A stretch of 64,000 bases of DNA from Minisyncoccota bacterium. GTDB lineage: Bacteria > Patescibacteriota > Minisyncoccia > Phycocordibacterales > WO2-35-19. The stretch is taken from contig JBAYKK010000003.1 in assembly GCA_041664625.1 (NCBI GenBank), forward strand, positions 4,331 to 68,330. The letters are read 5' to 3'. The notes beneath the pieces were generated by a model. It was not told the DNA's origin. It searched no databases and saw nothing but the letters and a program-made list of their open reading frames with translations. Position numbers and translations under genes: made by a program. Within the stretch, counting starts at the first letter, position 1, and each line of letters begins with the position of its first letter. This document shows, piece after piece, positions 10,969 through 56,602 of the stretch.

Positions 10969-11928
10969 TTAATATTTGTAATTTATCCAAATGGCAAAAA
11001 TGGACATGGGCAAAAGTTTTAAATTTTGCTGATTGATAGCTAATTCACCGACCTCGATATTACCCCGCCCGCCATTGCTACGCTCAGGCGTTAGCGGGCA
11101 GGCTCCTAAGTCCTTAGTTATTTCAGAAAGTAAATTGGCTACAGAAATTGATGAAAGCTCAGTTGAATACATATTGAAAATTATAAAGAGTGGGTTTTCA
11201 CTCAAAATGGCTCGGCAAGCTTGCAGGAGTTCTGGTAGTTGTTCTTCTATTTTCCAGACCTCGTCTTTGGGTCCTTTGCCGTAACTTGGCGGATCCATGA
11301 TGATCGCATCGTATTTTTTGCCGTTTTTTGCTTCTTTTTTTATAAATTTGATAACGTCATCTACGATCCATCTGATCGGCGCGTCTTGGAGGCCTGAGAG
11401 TTTTTGGTTTTCTCTTGCCCAATCCACTGATGGTTTGGAAGCATCTACATGAGTGACTTTGGCTCCCCACTTCGCTGAAGCTTCGCGGGACAGGCCCGCT
11501 TTGGCGGCAACTAAACTTGCAATTCCGGTGTAGCCAAATAGATTTAAAATATTTAATTCTTTTTTTTCTTTCCCCTCCTTTTCATTCATACTTCTTAATT
11601 CATAATTCATAATTCTCTCCTCTATCCATTTCCATTGTGGGAATTGCTCTGGGAAAATGCCGATATGTTTGGAAGTATTTTTGAATTTAATTTTGGCTTT
11701 GATTCCCCCAATTCCAATATCTACTACTGTTTCCAGTTCTTTTTTGCATAATTCATGATTCCATATTCTTGCGTCATTTTTCTGCCACCAAGCTCTAGGC
11801 TCATTCCTCACGATTTTGACGCCGTTAATTTCTTCTAGTTTTTGCTTGTTGCCCGAGTCCAATAGTTTGTAACCTCCCATCTCCCCTGTCCATATTTTTA
11901 TATCTTTCATGATTTTACAATACCACAA
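10969..11928 (-). CDS. class I SAM-dependent RNA methyltransferase (RlmI/RlmK-like)
   Basis: LNLFGYTGIASLVAAKAG...VTHVDAS...DPPSY motifs; carries a ~16-aa insert MNYELRSMNEKEGKEK. Confidence 0.6.
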   Translation of the reverse strand: MWYCKIMKDIKIWTGEMGGYKLLDSGNKQKLEEINGVKIVRNEPRAWWQKNDARIWNHELCKKELETVVDIGIGGIKAKIKFKNTSKHIGIFPEQFPQWKWIEERIMNYELRSMNEKEGKEKKELNILNLFGYTGIASLVAAKAGLSREASAKWGAKVTHVDASKPSVDWARENQKLSGLQDAPIRWIVDDVIKFIKKEAKNGKKYDAIIMDPPSYGKGPKDEVWKIEEQLPELLQACRAILSENPLFIIFNMYSTELSSISVANLLSEITKDLGACPLTPERSNGGRGNIEVGELAINQQNLKLLPMSIFAIWINYKY

Positions 11929-13049: not shown

Positions 13050-14693
13050 TTACAAAAATAAGCGGACGAGGCGGAGGTCTTCGTAGGAGTATTTGGCACC
13101 GAGGATTTCTTTGACTGGAGCCAGTCTGTAGCCCTCGCCTTCACCTATGCCGATTTTGCGGAAAGCGTTATAAATCTCTTTAAACTTATTTTTGGTCAAG
13201 TTGTCTCTGAGATTGTAGATATTATAATTTGGGTCTTTCTCTTTTATTTTTTCTATATGATCTAAAATACTGCCGAGCTTGAGTCCCCTCTCTTTGGCTA
13301 TCTCTTTGAGACTTTTGCCATCATCTAGCATTTTTTTGGTTTCGCTCACTGTGTCTAACTTCTTTTCTTTTTTATTTTTACTTTCACCGCTTACTTTTTT
13401 AGCAAAAGTCTCATGCATTTCGGATAGTTTTTTGTCGCCCATAGTTTTGATATGAAAAGCGGATGTTTCTGAAAGTTCTCTAAATTTTTTATCAAATTCC
13501 AAAACCTCTTCGTTCACTTTCAAAGCCATCTCGTTCAAACCTTTGAGGAAAAGCCCTGCTAGTGAGCGTACCCGAGAAAGGGCGACATAACCCATACCTC
13601 TCTCAAAAGAGGCTGATAAGTCGATCTCAGCTGAGTCCAATGACATTCCTTGGCTTTTGTGGACAGTGATTGCCCAAGCCAAACGTAGGGGGTATTGAGT
13701 TATTTCTGCTTTACTCTTACCTTCTTCCTCTATGCGCCAACTTTCTTGTTCTACTTCGATTACTTTGCCAGAGACAGTTTTCACGTGTATTTCATCATGA
13801 GTACATTTCACTACTACCCCCAAAGTGCCGTTGACGAAACCTTCTTCAAAATTATTTTTTACAAACATTATTTTAGCGCCAACTTTTAGACGCAAAATTT
13901 TGGGAGCCAAACAACTTTTTTGTAAATTCTCTATCATGTATGGTCGGCCTTTTTCTTGCATTTCGTATTCAAAAACTTTACCTGAAATTTTTTCAAGTTC
14001 GGTTTCGTTTTCACTGTTCACATCTCGGTTGTGTGAATAGAGTTTGGTCGGTTCAAATTCTGGTTTTTTGTTAAATCGAGTGTTTAAGATTTCTAAAATT
14101 TCATTTGAAACTTTGGCATCTCTAACTGCGTTTAATATTTTCAAATATTCCAAATCATTTTGCCTGTGTTGTTCAGAAAGGTAGCAGATTTTGAGGTCAA
14201 GCTTTTTCCAAGTCTCTGAATGATAAGCAAAGAAAACTTCTGGTTCAAAAGACTTCCTAACTGGTGGTAACTGAAAAAAATCTCCACAAAAAACCACTTG
14301 CATGCCACCAAAAGGTTCGTCTGAATTTTTTATTTTTTTTATTATTTTTTCTATCAGATCTAGTCGGAAATGATGCAACATTGATATCTCGTCTATCACC
14401 AAAACTTTTGCTTCAGAGATGTTTTTCTTTATGTGTTTTTTTTCAGCTATTTCTTCTATATCGCTTTTACTCAAATTGTCTCTGATACCAACTCCACTCC
14501 AAGAGTGGATAGTGGTCCCGCCCATATGAGTCGCGGCTATGCCGGTTGAAGCTGTAATGCCGATCTGGGCATTGAGGTCTCGCAGATAGTTTATGTATTC
14601 TCTTAAAATATGAGTTTTGCCACTACCAGCAGCACCAGTCAAAAATACATTTCGGCCAGTCTTCAATATATTCAAAGCTTCTTTTTGGGTCAT
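13050..14693 (-). CDS. RecD/Pif1-family ATP-dependent DNA helicase
   Basis: 547 aa; Walker A GAAGSGKTH, VLVIDEISM, C-terminal HTH-like extension. Confidence 0.8.
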   Translation of the reverse strand: MTQKEALNILKTGRNVFLTGAAGSGKTHILREYINYLRDLNAQIGITASTGIAATHMGGTTIHSWSGVGIRDNLSKSDIEEIAEKKHIKKNISEAKVLVIDEISMLHHFRLDLIEKIIKKIKNSDEPFGGMQVVFCGDFFQLPPVRKSFEPEVFFAYHSETWKKLDLKICYLSEQHRQNDLEYLKILNAVRDAKVSNEILEILNTRFNKKPEFEPTKLYSHNRDVNSENETELEKISGKVFEYEMQEKGRPYMIENLQKSCLAPKILRLKVGAKIMFVKNNFEEGFVNGTLGVVVKCTHDEIHVKTVSGKVIEVEQESWRIEEEGKSKAEITQYPLRLAWAITVHKSQGMSLDSAEIDLSASFERGMGYVALSRVRSLAGLFLKGLNEMALKVNEEVLEFDKKFRELSETSAFHIKTMGDKKLSEMHETFAKKVSGESKNKKEKKLDTVSETKKMLDDGKSLKEIAKERGLKLGSILDHIEKIKEKDPNYNIYNLRDNLTKNKFKEIYNAFRKIGIGEGEGYRLAPVKEILGAKYSYEDLRLVRLFL

Positions 14694-14854: not shown

Positions 14855-15343
14855 TTGAGAAGAAAAAAGAGCCCACCTGGTTTCAATATACACCACCGCA
14901 AACCTCGGAGGTTTGGTGGTCAGACTACTGAAGAAAATATCTCGGTAGTGCGTCGGGTCGAGCATAAGGCCTGGAACATTCTCTTTGACAATCTCCCAGC
15001 TCATGATGTGGTCAGATTATTCAGGGAATATTGGGAAATATTTGGAAACGAATCTCGAGTAACCCATGAGATTCGGCAGATCGGTCTTTCGGTACTTGGG
15101 GAAATGGAAAATTTCCAAAAATACAAAGACTTGCTCTCTGAAGCGGAACTGAATCGCATCAAGAGAACTTTGAGTACGGAAAGGTCTAAACTGAGAAAGA
15201 GCCGAGCCTGGGGGGTGCTCTTTAGTGGCCTTTCTTTGGAGCAGATATTAGTCAAAATCAACGGGGTCTGGATTGATCCAGATTACAAGTTGGTTGCTGA
15301 AGTCACCCAAGCCACTAACGTAAAGTTAGAGGCGAGATTTTAA
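14855..15343 (+). CDS. HNH-like endonuclease domain protein (Cys-less variant)
   Basis: TTG start with RBS agaggtgg; NIHHRKPRRFGGQTTEENISVVRRVEHKAWN fits the HNH core HH..P..GG...N...H. Confidence 0.5.
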   Translation: MRRKKSPPGFNIHHRKPRRFGGQTTEENISVVRRVEHKAWNILFDNLPAHDVVRLFREYWEIFGNESRVTHEIRQIGLSVLGEMENFQKYKDLLSEAELNRIKRTLSTERSKLRKSRAWGVLFSGLSLEQILVKINGVWIDPDYKLVAEVTQATNVKLEARF

Positions 15344-17146: not shown

Positions 17147-17363
17147 TATATTTTGGTAAAAATATTTTTTATAGGGTCAAAACTACCGGGAATGTTTTCT
17201 GGGTCAGTGAAAAAGTTTATATCCTCTAAATATATATATTTATAAAAAGAAAAAGATATAGAAAATAATATCAATAAAATAAAACACACAAACAAAACTT
17301 TAGACTTTTTGTCCATATTGGTATTATAACATATTTTATTTTGTAGTTTGTTAAATAAGAAAT

Positions 17364-17386
17364 CCCCCCGCGCGAATCGCAGGGGG
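17364..17386 (-). terminator. terminator of small peptide gene 1
   Basis: ccccccgcg-cgaat-cgcaggggg hairpin followed on the minus strand by a T-rich run. Confidence 0.6.
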
Positions 17387-17397
17387 ACTCTGGTTGC

Positions 17398-17523
17398 TTA
17401 GTTGTCCTTGTCGTCGCTGTCAGCATCGCTATCAGCGTCGTAATTACCGGACACAACAGAATCGTCGTCGCCACAACGGTAGATGATACAACGATCGTCT
17501 GGCACAGTGGAATCACCGTACAT
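17398..17523 (-). CDS. small acidic peptide, paralog 1 (41 aa) MYGDSTVPDDRCIIYRCGDDDSVVSGNYDADSDADSDDKDN
   Basis: Below track size cutoff; RBS aggaaaggag 6 nt before ATG; own terminator; conserved core PDxRCI(I/V)(Y/F)RxG(D/S)DD shared with 18948-19067; ~50% GC. Confidence 0.55.
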   Translation of the reverse strand: MYGDSTVPDDRCIIYRCGDDDSVVSGNYDADSDADSDDKDN

Positions 17524-17628
17524 ATTTTTCTCCTTTCCTCAAGAAGAGCCTAGCTAGCTGCTCTCCCATCCAAAGTACTGGGTTTGCCTGTCTGTGTTTA
17601 GTATGGTCTTAAAATACTTTTTGTCAAT
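17524..17628 (-). promoter_or_regulatory. conserved promoter plus ~70-nt 5' leader of peptide gene 1 (copy 1 of 2)
   Basis: ~85% nt identity to 19068-19172; TTGACA-16/17-cATAcT; leader hairpin GAGAGC...GCUCUU. Confidence 0.6.
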
Positions 17629-17648
17629 AGTGTGGTATTCTTAGGGGT

Positions 17649-18896
17649 ATGTTATTCCCTGAAATAAAAATTGAAAAAAATACAATTAATGGTGCTATTG
17701 TGTATAAACTTTATAAAAAAGATGCTCCTTTGGCCATAAGGTTTACTTTTTTTGCTGGTTCTCGTTTTGATGAAAAACCCGGAGTGGCTCATTGTCTAGA
17801 ACATTTATTTGTAGCTTCTACTTCTTTTTTTAAATCAAAAGATCAGATAGCTAAATATTTGGAACAATTTGGTGGAAATTTTTCAGCGACAACAGGTAAT
17901 GATGTTTTAAGAGTAAATATTGAAATTTCTGATAAAGAAGATATTGAAAAAGCTCTTTTGTTAATGAAAAGTTTTTTAGATAGAAGAATATTTGATAATA
18001 ATGTTTTTGAAAATGAAAGGAAATCTATTTTGTCAGAATTTCTAGAAAAGAAAAGTAATCCGTCTAAATTTGTTTGGGAATTACGAAGGAAAAATTCTTT
18101 TGCAGGAACACCTCTAGAGAACTCTATAATTGGTACAGAACAGGAGGTATTAAATATAACTGTTGACGATGTGATTAAACATCATGATAAAAATATAACA
18201 TCAGGAAAACTAAACATAGTAATTGCTGGAGATTTTGAAGAAAATATTGTTGATAACATAAAACAAAATTTACCTGAAATAAAAATTGAAAAATACTTAG
18301 GTCTGGATAATATTTTTTTTCCAAAAATGTTGCCAAATAAAAATCGCAATAAAATAATTGAAAAAAATATAGCCGACGGAAAACAGGCGTACACCGTTTG
18401 TAGTTTGGCTATATTTGACAAATTATCTGTAAAAGAAAAAATAGCTTTAAAGATATTCAATAATATATTTGGAGTGGGTCGCGGTTCTGTTTTGTTATCA
18501 AACCTTAGATACAAAGAGTCTTTTGTATATTCAGCTTTTTCATCGTTAAATGGGGGCTATGATTGGAGTATTTTTGATATTTATTTTTCTTCAAATTATC
18601 AAGACATTAATAAGTGTATTGAGATAATAAAGCAACAAGTAATAGAAATAAAAAATGGTAAAATCAGTAAAGAAGAATTTGAAAATGAAAAAAATAGAAT
18701 TATTAAAAATTTAAAAAGAGAATTGCAGACAACAAATGATCTGGTCAATTTTTGTGAACAGCTTTTTATATTTGAAGAAAATCTTAGTCTTAAAATGTAT
18801 AAAGACGCATTCGATGATTTAAAATTGGAGGATTTCTTGATTGTTATTAATAAATTTGTTAAAGAAGATCAATTTAACGTTGCAATTTGTAGATAA
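17649..18896 (+). CDS. M16 family zinc metallopeptidase (pitrilysin/insulinase-like)
   Basis: 415 aa; inverted zincin HxxEH motif (AHCLEHLF); M16 N/C domain lengths. Confidence 0.7.
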   Translation: MLFPEIKIEKNTINGAIVYKLYKKDAPLAIRFTFFAGSRFDEKPGVAHCLEHLFVASTSFFKSKDQIAKYLEQFGGNFSATTGNDVLRVNIEISDKEDIEKALLLMKSFLDRRIFDNNVFENERKSILSEFLEKKSNPSKFVWELRRKNSFAGTPLENSIIGTEQEVLNITVDDVIKHHDKNITSGKLNIVIAGDFEENIVDNIKQNLPEIKIEKYLGLDNIFFPKMLPNKNRNKIIEKNIADGKQAYTVCSLAIFDKLSVKEKIALKIFNNIFGVGRGSVLLSNLRYKESFVYSAFSSLNGGYDWSIFDIYFSSNYQDINKCIEIIKQQVIEIKNGKISKEEFENEKNRIIKNLKRELQTTNDLVNFCEQLFIFEENLSLKMYKDAFDDLKLEDFLIVINKFVKEDQFNVAICR

Positions 18897-18901
18897 TTAA
18901 G

Positions 18902-18928
18902 GAAGCCCCTCAAACTGCAAGGGGCTTC
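18902..18928. terminator. bidirectional terminator between M16 peptidase and peptide gene 2
   Basis: gaagcccct-caaactgca-aggggcttc perfect 9-bp stem. Confidence 0.65.
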
Positions 18929-18947
18929 TGTTGGGTTATTTCGGCAA

Positions 18948-19067
18948 TTAGTCGTCCCCGTCCTCGTCGTCGTCGCATGGTTCGTCTGGGTAATCATCGC
19001 TTCCCGCACGAAAAACAATACAACGATAATCGGGAATAGGTTCCTGGATTTTTTCCAGTGTTTGCAT
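18948..19067 (-). CDS. small acidic peptide, paralog 2 (39 aa) MQTLEKIQEPIPDYRCIVFRAGSDDYPDEPCDDDEDGDD
   Basis: RBS gaggaaaggg; conserved core with 17398-17523; synonymous-type nt differences in the core (gac/gat, atc/att, ggc/gga). Confidence 0.55.
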   Translation of the reverse strand: MQTLEKIQEPIPDYRCIVFRAGSDDYPDEPCDDDEDGDD

Positions 19068-19172
19068 GGTATTATCCCTTTCCTCAAGGAAAGCTCAGCT
19101 GGTGCTCTCCTATCTAAAGTACAGGGGGTTGCCTGTCTGTGTTTAGTATGGTATTAAAATATTTTTTGTCAA
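19068..19172 (-). promoter_or_regulatory. conserved promoter plus 5' leader of peptide gene 2 (copy 2 of 2)
   Basis: Near-identical to 17524-17628, including TTGACA, the -10 and the leader hairpin (GAGAGC...GCUUUC, stem kept by G:U/G:C swaps). Confidence 0.6.
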
Positions 19173-19667
19173 CTATGTATACTCTGGTTTTATTTTGTGG
19201 TTTTTGAGGTATAAGGTCCTAAAGTAAGTTGGTATGTATGGAAAATAACGAGAAAATTGTTTAGTTGGCAAAAATTGAATAGATTTGATTATTTTTCGGC
19301 AATTTTTTTCTCCACAAGCGCATTTCATGGACCATAATTGATCAGCTTCTATTATAGAATAATCAGTGGTTGTCTCGTCACCTTTTTTGATATCTTTTAG
19401 AGCAACAACTTCGACTTTTCCTTTTATACCGCAATTTGGATTGCAAGAATGATTTAAATATTTATAGGGTGGGATAGGGTCAACCCAATTATTCATCTTG
19501 AAACCAACCCAGTCAGGATGTGATAGTGCGTCTTTTTTGCCGTTGTTTACCTTAAACATTCTAGGGCCTTTTATTATAAAAACAATCTCTCCTTTCGCTA
19601 TATCTCTAGTTGCAAATATTCCTTTGCCATGAATTCCGCTTTTACTAACCGTTACTTTAGTCGACAT
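19173..19667 (-). CDS. SET-domain protein lysine methyltransferase
   Basis: 164 aa; GKGIFATRDIAKGEIV, NHSCNPN, TTTDYS, post-SET CACGEKNCR. Confidence 0.75.
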   Translation of the reverse strand: MSTKVTVSKSGIHGKGIFATRDIAKGEIVFIIKGPRMFKVNNGKKDALSHPDWVGFKMNNWVDPIPPYKYLNHSCNPNCGIKGKVEVVALKDIKKGDETTTDYSIIEADQLWSMKCACGEKNCRKIIKSIQFLPTKQFSRYFPYIPTYFRTLYLKNHKIKPEYT

Positions 19668-34872: not shown

Positions 34873-35502
34873 TTACAAATCTTTCAAAATTTCAAAGTCG
34901 GCTTTGAGGATGTCTAAAGTGTGAGAGTTGTAGACGGCTACACAAGGGTGGTAGAGCGGTATCACTTTTATTTCACGATTTTTCCATCCCCACTTCGCTA
35001 AAGCTTCGTGGGGCATAGCAAAAACTCGGCCGTGCATTTTGCCTATCGGAAGTAGCTCTGACTCCAAACCGAGTTTTGGCATGATATAACTCATGGCGTA
35101 GCGACCGAGAGTGGCTATCACTTGCGGTTGGACTATTTCAATTTGCCTATCCAAAAATGGTCCGTAAATTTCTATTTCTTCGGGTAGTGGGTCTCGGTTT
35201 TTGGGTGGGCGATCTTTGACTATGTTGGTGATGTAAATCTCTTCTCTTTTTAAACCAGTAGAATTTAAAAGTTCGTCCAATATTTGCCCTGCCCGACCGC
35301 AAAAAGGTCGACCGGTCTTGGCTTCGTTTTTACCGGGAGCTTCACCTATAAACATTATTTTGGCGGAGTGGCTACCATCACCGATGACTGGTAGATTTTT
35401 ATTTTCAATCCTGAATTTATAAAGTGGCGAATTTTTCAAGGCCACCACTTCATCTTTTATTTGCCTCATCATTTCTTTTCGCTCATCTATATCTCGTGAC
35501 AT
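34873..35502 (-). CDS. uracil-DNA glycosylase, family 4
   Basis: MFIGEAPGKNEAKTGRPFCGRAGQILD = family-4 UDG GEAPG / FxGxAG motifs. Confidence 0.8.
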   Translation of the reverse strand: MSRDIDERKEMMRQIKDEVVALKNSPLYKFRIENKNLPVIGDGSHSAKIMFIGEAPGKNEAKTGRPFCGRAGQILDELLNSTGLKREEIYITNIVKDRPPKNRDPLPEEIEIYGPFLDRQIEIVQPQVIATLGRYAMSYIMPKLGLESELLPIGKMHGRVFAMPHEALAKWGWKNREIKVIPLYHPCVAVYNSHTLDILKADFEILKDL

Positions 35503-37570: not shown

Positions 37571-38740
37571 CTACTTGATAATGCCACCACCGAGGCAAGT
37601 CTCGCCATCACCTGCCTTGCCGGCAGGCAGGTATAAAACCAAAGATTGACCAGGCGCTACACCGTTTTGAGGTTTGTCAAAAGTCACTGATATTTGGTTA
37701 TTTTCTTTTGAAATACGACAAGCGATTTTTTCTTGACGGTATCTCACTCGGCATTGAATCTTTTTGTTTGGGATTTCGCCACTAAGATTTACATCAGTGA
37801 GAATTACTTTTTGTGGAGTATCACTAGTGCTACGGAACTTCTCGGCAACTGTTATAGTATTTTTTTTGATATCTTTAGCTATCACATACACAGGGCTACC
37901 CTGTGCGGTTTTTTGAAGTATGGTGAAGCCGTGGCGTTCGCCAATAGTAAAAAATAAAGCACCATTATGAAAACCTATTATTTCTCCTTTTTCATTCAAG
38001 ACTTTCCCTTCTTTTTGAGGCATGTAGCGAGATAAAAATTCTTTCATATCGACTTTACCCAAGAAGCAAAGGCCTTGGCTATCTTTGCGAGTTTCTTGTG
38101 GCAGGCCAAATTTACCCGCCAATTTACGGACTTCTGATTTTTGCAGATGACCTATGGGGAATAAAACATGTTTGAGCTGATCTTGGTTTAGGGTCCAGAG
38201 GAAGTAGCTTTGATCCTTGTTCGGATCAGCTCCTTCCTTAAGTAGCCAGTAGTTAGTAGCCAGTAGCCAGGGTTCTAAATTTGTTTTTTTATTTTTACTA
38301 GATGCTAGATGCTTACTACTAACTACTTTTTTACAAGCGTAGTGTCCAGTAGCGACAAAATCAGCACCATTTTTTAAAGCAAATTTCAAGAAGTGACCAA
38401 ACTTGATTTCTTTGTTGCACATCACATCTGGGTTGGGAGTGCGACCGATTTTGTATTCAGCTATCATATAATCCACTACTTCTTTTTTGTATTCTTTTTC
38501 TAGGTCCAAGGTGATAAAAGGAATATCCAAAATAGCCGCTACTCTCATAGCGCTTCGGCGGTCTTCTTTCCAGGTACAAGGATAACCTTCGGGTGTCCAA
38601 GCTTTGATGAATACCCCAGTTACCTCGAAGCCTTCTTTTTGAAGCAAGGCAGCGCTCACCGCACTATCTACCCCACCCGAAAGCCCGACAAATACTTTTT
38701 GGCTGTTTGTTTTTTTGTTTTTTATGTTTTTCACTTTCAA
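37571..38740 (-). CDS. mnmA: tRNA-specific 2-thiouridylase MnmA
   Basis: PP-loop SGGVDSAVSA; catalytic Cys pair; carries a ~20-aa low-complexity insert (SSKHLASSKNKKTNLEPWLLATNYWLL). Confidence 0.85.
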   Translation of the reverse strand: MKVKNIKNKKTNSQKVFVGLSGGVDSAVSAALLQKEGFEVTGVFIKAWTPEGYPCTWKEDRRSAMRVAAILDIPFITLDLEKEYKKEVVDYMIAEYKIGRTPNPDVMCNKEIKFGHFLKFALKNGADFVATGHYACKKVVSSKHLASSKNKKTNLEPWLLATNYWLLKEGADPNKDQSYFLWTLNQDQLKHVLFPIGHLQKSEVRKLAGKFGLPQETRKDSQGLCFLGKVDMKEFLSRYMPQKEGKVLNEKGEIIGFHNGALFFTIGERHGFTILQKTAQGSPVYVIAKDIKKNTITVAEKFRSTSDTPQKVILTDVNLSGEIPNKKIQCRVRYRQEKIACRISKENNQISVTFDKPQNGVAPGQSLVLYLPAGKAGDGETCLGGGIIK

Positions 38741-55086: not shown

Positions 55087-55692
55087 CTATTTTTTGTATT
55101 GCATGATGCCGGCTCCCTTGATCTCAGTTTGGCCCGCTTTGCGTATAAATTTTTTATTGACTTCGGGTACGAAATTGAAATGCGGTGAACTGTCCAAAGC
55201 CTCGGCAATTTCATCCAAATCTTGTTCGGCTGTCACCCAAGCTGTGCCAAATTTTTTCCAAATATCAAATGGTTTGGAAAAAGATTTCAAAGTTTTTTCA
55301 CCCGAATCTAAAAAATATTCATGATAAAAAGACAAAGCTAGTTCGCGAGGATTTTGGTAAATCGGATCACGGAAACGCAAGACTGAGTGATTGGTTTTGG
55401 AAATCGCTCCCCAAAATCCATTTATTTTGAAAACACACAAAACATGGTCGTAATCTTTTTTTAAATCCTTAACTTTCAAGTCTAGCAAATAGTTTTCTAT
55501 TTTATTTTGTTGTAAACACAGGCAAGCCAAAATAGCTCCTTCAAAGCAGTGCATCCTTCCTGCTTCCAAAACTCGCTTGGGCGACATATAAGTCTCTCCC
55601 CTTTTTTCAAAATTGAAAGGGGTTTTGTCCAAAAAATCCTGCACCTTGGCCGGCGTGTTGAGTTTTTTTATTATTTTTGGCAGTTTTTTCAT
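55087..55692 (-). CDS. transglutaminase-like cysteine peptidase fold protein (putative)
   Basis: Start at MKKLPK; GRMHCFEGAILACLCL fits the GxCxxFAxxL catalytic-Cys motif, later DHVLCVF (His) segment. Confidence 0.4.
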   Translation of the reverse strand: MKKLPKIIKKLNTPAKVQDFLDKTPFNFEKRGETYMSPKRVLEAGRMHCFEGAILACLCLQQNKIENYLLDLKVKDLKKDYDHVLCVFKINGFWGAISKTNHSVLRFRDPIYQNPRELALSFYHEYFLDSGEKTLKSFSKPFDIWKKFGTAWVTAEQDLDEIAEALDSSPHFNFVPEVNKKFIRKAGQTEIKGAGIMQYKK

Positions 55693-55698
55693 GTTTGT

Positions 55699-55743
55699 CC
55701 TCACCCCTTATCCCCTCTCCTTGGCAAGGAGAGGGGGCGAGCA
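55699..55743 (-). repeat. promoter-hairpin-RBS cassette, copy 1
   Basis: cctcaccccttatcccctctccttgGcaaggagaggggGcgagca; 2 mismatches vs 56521-56565; supplies a GGTGAGGA Shine-Dalgarno 5 nt before the ATG. Confidence 0.8.
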
Positions 55744-55744
55744 C

Positions 55745-56161
55745 TTATCGCATTATTTCAGGTATTTTATTACGAGGAATTTTTCTTACTTTAATTTTAT
55801 TGTGACCCCCAAGGTAAAGCTTTGCTAGGCGATGCAATCCATCAAGAATACGCCATCTACCTTTATTCTCCATAATATCAATTGGATGGTTTATATCTGC
55901 CTCTTGTATTTTACGAAAGTGAGTTGGTTCATTTTCCGGGTATTTTATAACTTCCCAGGGCGTTAAATTAAATTCTGTTAAATTAAATTTATTTTTGCCT
56001 CCCCTGTCCCAAAATGGAATATCAAAATGCCAGATTAATTCCTGAATATCTATTTCCGTCACCGGTTCATTAAGTTTCCAAACTTTCTTTGGATTCCAAG
56101 CGGTGCCGATACCAACATCTTTTATTATTTGTGGTATTTTGTTGTTTTTATTGTTTTCCAT
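55745..56161 (-). CDS. ParB/sulfiredoxin-like nuclease-fold domain protein (putative)
   Basis: 138 aa; GRWRILDGLHRLAKL resembles the ParB-like DGxHR motif. Confidence 0.4.
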   Translation of the reverse strand: MENNKNNKIPQIIKDVGIGTAWNPKKVWKLNEPVTEIDIQELIWHFDIPFWDRGGKNKFNLTEFNLTPWEVIKYPENEPTHFRKIQEADINHPIDIMENKGRWRILDGLHRLAKLYLGGHNKIKVRKIPRNKIPEIMR

Positions 56162-56513
56162 TATTTATTTCATTATAAATCTTTTTCAATACTTTTTCTA
56201 TGTCATTTTCTACCTCCTCATTTAAAAATCTAATTGTTGTGTATTCAAGTTCTTTAAAAAATTTGTCTCTCACCGCATCGTATTCTTTTGCTTCTTTGGT
56301 ATTATGTATTTCTCCATCAAGCTCAATGATTAATTTTTTCTTGGCGCAATAAAAATCCAAAATATAACCACCGATGCTGTATTGTCTTTTAAATCTAAAA
56401 CCTAGTTTTTGATTTCTTAATTTCTCCCACAGCAATTTTTCTTGAGGGGTAGCTCTTTTGCGTAATTCTTGTCTCCTGTCTCCTAATTCAAATATGTTGT
56501 GAATTAATCTCAT
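56148..56513 (-). CDS. DUF559 / Vsr-like PD-(D/E)xK endonuclease domain protein
   Basis: GGYILDFYC...LIIELDGEIH core typical of DUF559; start taken at the internal ATG (MRLIHN). Confidence 0.6.
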   Translation of the reverse strand: MRLIHNIFELGDRRQELRKRATPQEKLLWEKLRNQKLGFRFKRQYSIGGYILDFYCAKKKLIIELDGEIHNTKEAKEYDAVRDKFFKELEYTTIRFLNEEVENDIEKVLKKIYNEINNGKQ

Positions 56514-56520
56514 AAAAATC

Positions 56521-56602
56521 CTCACCCCTTATCCCCTCTCCTTGACAAGGAGAGGGGACGAGCAGTATCTACATTATACTAAAATCTAGATTGGGGTGAG
56601 GA
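56521..56602 (-). repeat. promoter-hairpin-RBS cassette, copy 2, with distal inverted ggggtgagg partner
   Basis: cctcacccc(56521)...cccctctccttgacaaggagagggg hairpin...TATAAT (as tacattatac on +)...ggggtgagg(56594). Confidence 0.8.

Follow-up and report, generated by a model that had tools for sequence, protein, structure and literature searches.

A structured 5′ leader with a self-complementary loop and an acidic peptide family in Patescibacteria: two predicted micro-protein cassettes beside an M16 peptidase gene

Introduction

The dimerization initiation site (DIS) of HIV-1, located in stem-loop 1 (SL1), is a hairpin with a stem of 7-8 bp and a 9-nt loop of the form RR-N6-R, in which the palindrome varies but remains self-complementary. 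Bacterial 5′ untranslated regions (UTRs) carry modules of other kinds, such as the 5′-terminal protective hairpins of ompA and aprE, the "STAB-SD" element, hairpins that sequester the Shine-Dalgarno (SD) sequence, and RNA thermometers. Here we describe two minus-strand genes for acidic peptides of ~40 amino acids (aa) in a stretch of 64,000 nucleotides (nt) from a Minisyncoccota bacterium of the Patescibacteria (contig JBAYKK010000003.1; the whole stretch is hereafter called the window), whose predicted mRNA leaders, folded into two helices named P1 and P2, resemble both kinds of element. Patescibacteria have tiny genomes and almost no characterized regulation or small-protein biology. Taken singly, the components of the system described below (a cis-acting leader RNA, a kissing loop and a small peptide with a tailoring enzyme) belong to known kinds; their combination, a DIS-like loop in a bacterial mRNA leader that serves a set of micro-protein genes in a CPR clade, appears to be new; none of the leader, the peptide and the 190-aa enzyme that accompanies it in relatives has a match in Rfam, Pfam, NCBIfam or the literature.

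Like the DIS, the P2 hairpin combines a stem of ~7 bp with a loop of ~9 nt that holds a purine-flanked self-complementary 6-mer (AA-CAGCUG-A, AA-CUCGAG-A or GA-AAGCUU-G), and its palindrome varies yet stays self-complementary. Unlike the DIS, it lies in a bacterial mRNA leader just upstream of the SD and not in a retroviral genome, has no packaging role and no sequence homology, has lost the palindrome in some lineages, and is only a putative dimerization element. In common with bacterial 5′-UTR modules, the leader has a hairpin at its predicted extreme 5′ end, an SD-like AGGAG inside it, and a CU-rich anti-SD-like strand that can pair either with the AGGAG segment (in P2) or with the true SD. 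It differs from them in lacking an Rfam match, in leaving the SD free in its predicted default fold, in its self-complementary loop, and in being common to a set of micro-protein genes and not to one gene family.

HExxH proteins can be proteases or α-ketoglutarate (α-KG)-dependent hydroxylases or cleavers of the precursors of peptides that ribosomes synthesize and that are modified after translation (RiPPs) (PMC12636437). In relatives of the window genome, the acidic peptide is accompanied by an HExxH protein of 190 aa, which in contrast to the known members of α-KG HExxH/radical-SAM RiPP pairs is about half their size and matches neither the hidden Markov model (HMM) of the α-KG-HExxH family nor, above cut-off, that of any peptidase family. 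Unlike RiPP precursor/tailoring pairs, the peptide and 190-aa genes are convergent and separately transcribed, and unlike RiPP systems the peptide loci have no consistent maturase, exporter or immunity gene, none of these enzymes being encoded in the window. No adjacent maturase of the radical-SAM/SPASM (SCIFF/ranthipeptide-like) kind was found in the window, and the peptides gave no NCBIfam match. The likeness to PqqA/PqqF, in which a small peptide gene adjoins an M16 (HxxEH) gene, is confined to the window genome; the M16 adjacency is not conserved, the window has no PqqE-like radical-SAM gene, and the M16 protein falls far below the PqqF cut-off (24 against 320 bits).

Two copies of a micro-protein cassette

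We consider it rather probable that the two genes represent one lineage-specific cassette for micro-protein expression, known from Zambryskibacteria and related Parcubacteria and present here in two copies, in which the peptide would be a substrate or ligand of the 190-aa enzyme and the leader a shared cis-acting RNA module. Both copies have the same predicted monocistronic layout, a sigma-70-type promoter followed by a ~65-nt structured leader, a short open reading frame (ORF) and an intrinsic terminator. The first-pass annotation had placed two mini-ORFs on the minus strand at 17398-17523 (41 aa) and 18948-19067 (39 aa), each with a strong ribosome-binding site and its own terminator, and had described a common core P-D-x-R-C-I-(I/V)-(Y/F)-R-x-G-x-D-D with acidic tails; all of this holds, an SD and a hairpin terminator being present for each gene, and the two peptides share 44% aa identity. 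The predicted features are as follows, with leaders scored by cmsearch against the covariance model R1 described below.

17600-17627, minus strand: copy 1 promoter, TTGACA, 16-nt spacer, CATACT
17530-17595, minus strand: copy 1 structured leader (model R1), 71.8 bits, E 2.6e-21
17591-17587 with 17581-17577, minus strand: copy 1 P1, with a single A.A mismatch
17567-17560 with 17549-17542, minus strand: copy 1 P2
17559-17550, minus strand: copy 1 apical loop AGCUAGCUAG, self-complementary
17535-17530, minus strand: copy 1 SD AAGGAG, 6 nt before the ATG
17398-17523, minus strand: copy 1 ORF, 41 aa, canonical (type A) acidic peptide MYGDSTVPDDRCIIYRCGDDDSVVSGNYDADSDADSDDKDN
17360-17390, minus strand: copy 1 intrinsic terminator hairpin, 13 pairs followed by a U-rich tail
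19145-19172, minus strand: copy 2 promoter, TTGACA, 16-nt spacer, CATACT
19075-19140, minus strand: copy 2 structured leader, 75.2 bits, E 2e-22
19136-19132 with 19125-19121, minus strand: copy 2 P1
19111-19104 with 19094-19087, minus strand: copy 2 P2
19103-19095, minus strand: copy 2 9-nt loop, with the palindrome CAGCUG at 19101-19096
19085-19076, minus strand: copy 2 SD region, GGAAAGGG before the ATG
18948-19067, minus strand: copy 2 ORF, 39 aa, divergent (type B-like) acidic peptide MQTLEKIQEPIPDYRCIVFRAGSDDYPDEPCDDDEDGDD
18902-18928, minus strand: copy 2 terminator hairpin, in the gap where the stop codons of the convergent copy 2 and M16 genes face each other

A 48-nt block of promoter and 5′ leader shows 94% identity from one copy to the other, against only 44% aa identity for the ORFs. 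A hairpin sequence near-identical to the copy 2 terminator lies 3′ of the peptide gene in L001 (related loci are given by L numbers throughout). Reading the transcripts as type I toxin-antitoxin mRNAs was ruled out, both peptides being strongly acidic and hydrophilic in contrast to the small hydrophobic, membrane-active peptides of such systems.

The acidic peptide family

Both ORFs encode acidic peptides of ~40 aa that belong to a single conserved family, translated as judged by its codons, with copy 1 as a canonical member and copy 2 as a divergent paralogue. Word-indexed and exhaustive profile searches found nine database homologues of 39-46 aa in metagenome-assembled genomes (MAGs) of Zambryskibacteria/Parcubacteria, with the consensus MYxxS..DExI(I/V)YRCGDDD..DSVSSDDYSxDSDADSxExDN, and additional members were recovered by DNA-based retrieval. 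A single-sequence search returned one relative only, and the exhaustive profile search of 1.84 billion representatives added just one member, from which it follows that the family is narrow. Neither peptide has a match in Pfam or NCBIfam.

The first-pass annotation had argued for translation from synonymous differences within the core; 9 residues of the 14-codon core are identical, and 5 of these are encoded with synonymous differences; over the full length, the proportions of differing synonymous (pS) and nonsynonymous (pN) sites between the copies are 0.72 and 0.41. By itself this pair is suggestive of selection on a translated peptide, and the case becomes convincing because of the family data. 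Among 13 coding sequences the summed pS is 0.80 and the summed pN 0.31, with synonymous sites saturated, and conserved Ser positions swap between TCN and AGY codons, so that the peptide ORFs are borne out as genuine, translated and conserved. Copy 1 differs from most relatives with a pN of 0.16-0.30 and a pS of 0.63-0.87, copy 2 from all relatives with a pN of 0.39-0.53. The N-terminal half of copy 2 is like that of the ..REPxVxCTVYRAGD.. subfamily of L002 and L029, and copy 2 is without the DSVSSDDY..DSDADS block; neither Cys is universally conserved in the family alignment. As to the outcome that the first-pass annotation had named as refuting it, conservation of the leaders only, leader and ORF both prove to be conserved, though the leader more strongly, and the leader also stands 5′ of unrelated ORFs.

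Some loci depart from the usual form. Acidic peptide ORFs missed by gene callers lie convergent to divergent 190-aa enzyme genes at L059:3568-4000 and L063:3607-3800; in L059 the R1 leader is absent, and two further small acidic ORFs lie just upstream of the peptide gene. In L046 (Candidatus Zambryskiibacteriota PATE-6) the acidic peptide has 28 aa only and is without the YRCG core.

A convergent 190-aa HExxH protein

A gene for the 190-aa HExxH protein is convergent to the peptide gene in nearly all of ~15 other lineages and at every non-window locus with an intact peptide gene (in L002 it is frameshifted). The reverse search, begun with divergent homologues of the 190-aa protein (45-59% identity), led back to a convergent acidic peptide gene in L059 and L063/64, and in L061 to no more than a C-terminal remnant of one. 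The family has an invariant H109-E110-x-x-H113 and H139, and carries the HExxH motif of the thermolysin-like/zincin catalytic fold, its third invariant ligand candidate being His139 and not the Glu of gluzincins. Comparison with PDB sequences gave no informative match. HExxH/zincin enzymes act on peptides, either as proteases or as α-KG hydroxylases of Asp, His and Gln (PMC12636437). As the peptide is constantly paired with a metalloenzyme fold that acts on peptides, the best guess is that it serves as substrate or ligand: probably the 190-aa enzyme cleaves it or modifies its side chains in a RiPP-like manner, or else binds it tightly as a ligand. Peptide and enzyme together would form a compact two-gene module. 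The pairing of a peptide with a metalloenzyme, on which the first-pass annotation had built, is thus real for the family, but the conserved partner is the 190-aa HExxH protein and not M16.

The pairing might instead reflect binding without processing, if the peptides were small acidic proteins in their final form, which might inhibit, regulate or chaperone the 190-aa enzyme, bind metal cations or mimic nucleic acids. Conservation along the whole peptide, strongest at the C-terminus (DSVSSDDYSxDSDADS) and with no leader/core split, would agree with this, as would the lack of an export signal, the convergent and separately transcribed genes, which are unusual for precursor-enzyme pairs, and the likeness of other leader-driven ORFs (DUF397, the MGKWTD.. 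family) to small proteins rather than precursors. On the other hand, zincin/HExxH enzymes act on peptides (PMC12636437), sibling cassettes occur in radical-SAM/SPASM clusters (see below), and a radical-SAM gene stands beside the 190-aa gene in L003-L005; we regard finished proteins as possible though somewhat unlikely.

Several neighborhoods of this gene were recorded on their own account. L003 (2355-5880) has a MacB-like FtsX/ABC/periplasmic-adaptor exporter directly upstream of the peptide gene and a radical-SAM gene beyond the 190-aa gene, an arrangement not seen in the other lineages. In L061 the 190-aa HExxH gene adjoins a Pif1 helicase homologue, and in the window a 162-aa ORF with a weak HNH-like signature (14855-15343, plus strand; E 0.063, below cut-off) lies between a Pif1-family helicase gene (13050-14693) and a kinase gene.

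The leader RNA and its genes

The leader DNA pattern was found in at least 27 metagenome stretches, and a relaxed pattern in at least 14 genome stretches, 12 of them MAGs of Zambryskibacteria/Parcubacteria/Patescibacteria and 2 weak and chance-like; by a hand estimate ~0.5 matches to the first pattern and ~5 to the relaxed one are expected by chance, and since collection scans give lower bounds, the taxonomic range of the leader is a lower bound too. Viral contigs gave 0 leader matches, and a phage origin of the cassette was dropped for this reason. A covariance model, R1, built from 28 leader copies has exactly two matches in the window, those listed above, and a search with filters off found no extra degenerate copy there above 14.5 bits. 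Metagenome loci and the window together yield 42 strong matches (60-84 bits); a further 13 come from genome loci and 2 from the loci reached by way of the enzyme, and scores in metagenome and genome loci span 58-84 bits overall. At gathering thresholds the whole window has 0 matches to the 4227 families of Rfam, and a permissive Rfam search of 17200-19400 gave chance-level matches only (E 1.6-8.9) and no plausible leader family; literature searches found neither the motif nor the peptide family described.

The leader consists of two helices, P1 (ACAGG/CCUGU) and P2 (AGGAGAGC/GCUYUYCU). Among the helix cells of the alignment 96.5% are paired, and both sides have changed in 8/13 pairs; 0/500 shuffles reach the observed values, and slid controls are 39-62% paired. 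The search pattern fixed no position of the helices, which fall in its N-gap or beyond its fixed letters, so the covariation is free of circularity, and the excess of G.U cells (~52, against 18 non-standard cells) supports an RNA on this strand. By these compensatory changes the leader is a structured cis-acting RNA in the generic sense, with unusually clean covariation for a conserved motif absent from Rfam.

In 40/50 distinct family members a TTGAC[ATC] box starts 32-34 nt upstream of the leader model, a fixed distance by which transcription would begin at P1 or no more than ~3 nt away from it, with P1 at the extreme 5′ end. The median energy of P2 is -9.8 kcal/mol and that of an alternative anti-SD/SD hairpin -5.9 kcal/mol, so that the default state is predicted to leave the SD open. 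In the minimum free energy structure of copy 2, GAGG of the SD region pairs with the conserved CUUUA linker, a pairing whose columns are invariant and give no covariation to assess. GGA motifs are present (GGAU in the linker and GGA at the SD), and homologues of CsrA and Hfq, considered as candidate trans factors, were found neither in the window nor in any of the related loci retrieved. Truncated leaders at L028:1098-1153, L011:6820-6875 and L044:4978-5013 have P1 and the linker followed by AGGAG as SD, without P2. These point to a composite leader in which the P2/palindrome unit looks insertable.

The leader is found 5′ of at least 12 unrelated small ORF families, nearly all of which have 28-78 aa, are transcribed as single genes and end in a terminator hairpin, and could thus serve as a sequence tag for small genes that gene callers often miss. 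Besides the acidic peptides, these families include DUF397 proteins, MGKWTD.., MSDKWEDKGVCCN.. and several Cys/Asp-rich peptides. (A weak DUF397-like tblastn match at 37597-37752 of the window was dismissed, since it falls inside a 389-aa gene on the opposite strand.) The locus L027 (1-2837, Ga0172379_10071754) is syntenic with the copy 1 site, with an orf56 product 75% identical and then the kinase; here an R1 leader drives a Cys/Asp-rich 41-aa peptide, ACDNDCDSDCDTESDHGCDCYSG, and the cassette is preceded by genes for a 215-aa HExxH protein and a Radical_SAM/SPASM enzyme, so that the locus looks like a compact RiPP-like cluster. The 215-aa protein was ruled out as a member of the 190-aa family (hhalign probability 1.6%). 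Radical-SAM genes also lie near leader or peptide loci in L003-L005 and L025/L054. The likeness to RiPP loci noted in the first-pass annotation therefore stands for a sibling leader cassette in the radical-SAM/SPASM cluster of L027, but not for the window, which has no radical-SAM enzyme.

The self-complementary P2 loop

A perfect palindrome of at least 6 nt occupies the apical loop of P2 in 24/28 distinct hairpins, whereas shuffled loops have a mean of 1.8 palindromic members and a maximum of 9 in 2000 trials. The usual loop has 9 nt, with the palindrome at offset 2 and 1 nt after it, and the palindromes seen are AAGCUU, CAGCUG, UAGCUA, GAGCUC, CUCGAG, CUGCAG, UUGCAA, UGGCCA and CUAGCUAG. Counted as pairs, 98.2% of their cells are complementary and 3/3 positions covary. 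A 6-nt palindrome is unable to pair with itself inside a 9-nt loop, and long-range pairing within the transcript is disfavored by the presence of a second copy in only 2/41 transcripts; intermolecular loop-loop pairing is therefore the simplest reading, and we infer that the loop mediates kissing dimerization of the mRNA. By a thermodynamic estimate, joining two monomers into the extended homodimer would gain -11.5 kcal/mol in the median. Copies on the same contig have a common palindrome in L029, L036 and L041/42, and differing ones in L031, L024, L040 and the window. The palindrome is absent in L002 (an acidic peptide locus) and L048, and L046 (895-957 and 1900-1962) has an extended stem with a GAAA tetraloop in place of the 9-nt palindromic loop.

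Palindromes are also classic protein-binding sites, and several of those seen here are known restriction sites (AAGCTT, CAGCTG, CTCGAG, GAGCTC, CTGCAG). The self-complementarity might accordingly belong to the DNA, as the operator of a dimeric protein or a restriction/modification site, or might have no function, as the lack of the palindrome in L002 and L048 and the GAAA tetraloop of L046 could suggest. Against a fixed protein site, however, stand at least 9 different palindromes that are 98.2% complementary with three positions covarying, a signature of base pairing, and the different palindromes found within single contigs (L031, L024, L040 and the window); RNA is likewise favored by the fixed place of the palindrome, 2 nt from the start and 1 nt from the end of a 9-nt loop whose RNA stem covaries and is rich in G.U pairs, and we think a DNA-level or functionless palindrome unlikely.

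A model for the leader and the peptide

From what is observed in the sequence, namely the anatomy of the cassette, the conservation of peptide and partner gene, the RNA helices and the self-complementarity of the loop, we tentatively propose that a clade of Patescibacteria dimerizes the mRNAs of micro-proteins and RiPP precursors through a modular leader with a DIS-like loop, thereby controlling their stability or translation, and that the acidic peptides are substrates of a minimal 190-aa modifying enzyme of zincin fold. The 5′-terminal P1 would protect the mRNA from 5′-end-dependent decay, while P2, by pairing the SD-like arm AGGAGAGC with the CU-rich anti-SD-like arm, would leave the true SD free. 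The whole leader would then be an end-protecting and translation-competent one, in which the P2 loop lets transcripts pair with each other, and kissing of the loops would couple mRNA stability or translation to the concentration of the transcript or of a partner RNA. Candidate outcomes of dimerization are stabilization, a ~20-bp coaxial helix for a double-strand RNase, and altered access of ribosomes. If true, this would be a form of control by mRNA dimerization that has not been described for bacterial leaders.

Several points weigh against the model. The promoter, transcript ends and translation are predictions, as are, at one remove, the enzyme-substrate relation, the dimerization and its regulatory outcome. 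The exceptions in L002, L048 and L046 imply that dimerization is dispensable in some lineages, and the differing palindromes within one genome argue against a simple regulon-wide network of heterodimers. The linker GUACUUUGGAU and the SD blocks were fixed by the search patterns, so that their apparent invariance is partly circular. On the enzyme side, the best match of the 190-aa family among curated peptidase families is Peptidase_M78, for one member only and below the cut-off (E 0.008, 16.4 against 22 bits), and the α-KG-HExxH model (IPR026337) does not match the family. The peptides show no recognizable leader/core division, cleavage motif or export signal. Finally, tblastn found no homologue of the 190-aa enzyme in the window, so the argument from a partner gene is not directly applicable to the window genome.

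The M16 peptidase and other neighbors

The gene that occupies the place of the 190-aa gene in the window is the following.

17649-18896, plus strand: M16 peptidase gene (Pfam Peptidase_M16 and M16_C; HCLEH)

In several relatives the peptide locus lies downstream of dnaJ, as it does in the window, and by this shared synteny M16 occupies the convergent slot of the 190-aa gene. Pfam agrees with the first-pass annotation on the M16 gene between the mini-genes, on a SET-domain protein upstream of copy 2 and, by HisKA/HATPase_c, on a multi-transmembrane kinase downstream of copy 1; a 192-aa protein with six putative transmembrane segments (6-TM) has no family match.

That annotation had gone further and read the locus as a processing system like PqqA/PqqF, in which the flanking M16 would process both peptide precursors, the SET and 6-TM proteins would modify or export them, and the kinase would sense the product. 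M16 does lie exactly between both peptide genes and shares a bidirectional terminator with copy 2, non-orthologous replacement is conceivable for a slot held by a different metalloenzyme in all relatives, and in L027, too, a peptide gene driven by the leader has the orf56-kinase pair after it. However, the co-occurrence that this reading calls for is not found, as a tblastn search of 62 related loci (378 kb) with the M16, SET and 6-TM proteins detects no homologue of any of them. The kinase and orf56 adjoin a leader-driven peptide gene in one relative only, L027, where the peptide is an unrelated Cys/Asp-rich one, and a kinase homologue in L030 has no peptide neighbor. The M16 protein stays far under the cut-offs of the PqqF model (24.2 against 320 bits) and the YfmF model (88 against 285 bits). 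The window has no tblastn match to the radical-SAM/SPASM enzyme of L027, no plausible CxxxCxxC radical-SAM ORF and no other modifying enzyme, and an operon link is lacking, both peptide genes being provided with a promoter and a terminator of their own. We judge the processing system to be quite improbable, and a functional substitution of the 190-aa enzyme by M16 unlikely: M16 is a positional neighbor in the slot of the 190-aa gene, and position alone is no evidence of function. The neighborhood of a single genome (M16, SET, kinase) had been misleading.

Very improbable, lastly, is the idea that the copies are alike only by recent local duplication or gene conversion with a functionless leader, or that the transcripts are non-coding small RNAs with incidental ORFs, for although the 94% identity of promoter spacer and 5′ leader points to recent exchange within the window genome and the copy 2 ORF has strongly diverged, dozens of contigs, of differing habitat, keep the leader through compensatory changes, also in front of unrelated ORFs, and the acidic ORF, whose synonymous sites are saturated, is conserved as a protein and persists without the leader in L059.

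Other elements of the window

ARAGORN found no tRNA or tmRNA gene in the 64-kb window. A 59-nt repeat, 86% identical between 55698-55756 and 56519-56577, covers the 5′ end of each of two genes on the minus strand, 55087-55704 (205 aa) and 56148-56525 (125 aa), and holds a perfect hairpin, CCCCUCUCCUU-GCC-AAGGAGAGGGG, with anti-SD-like and SD-like arms; it may be a second repeated, SD-sequestering leader of the window genome. A 29-nt repeat, TCCCCACTTCGCTGAAGCTTCGCGGGACA, with hairpin potential is 90% identical between 11464-11492 and 34987-35015, and could be either a terminator common to both places or a small repeated element of some other sort.

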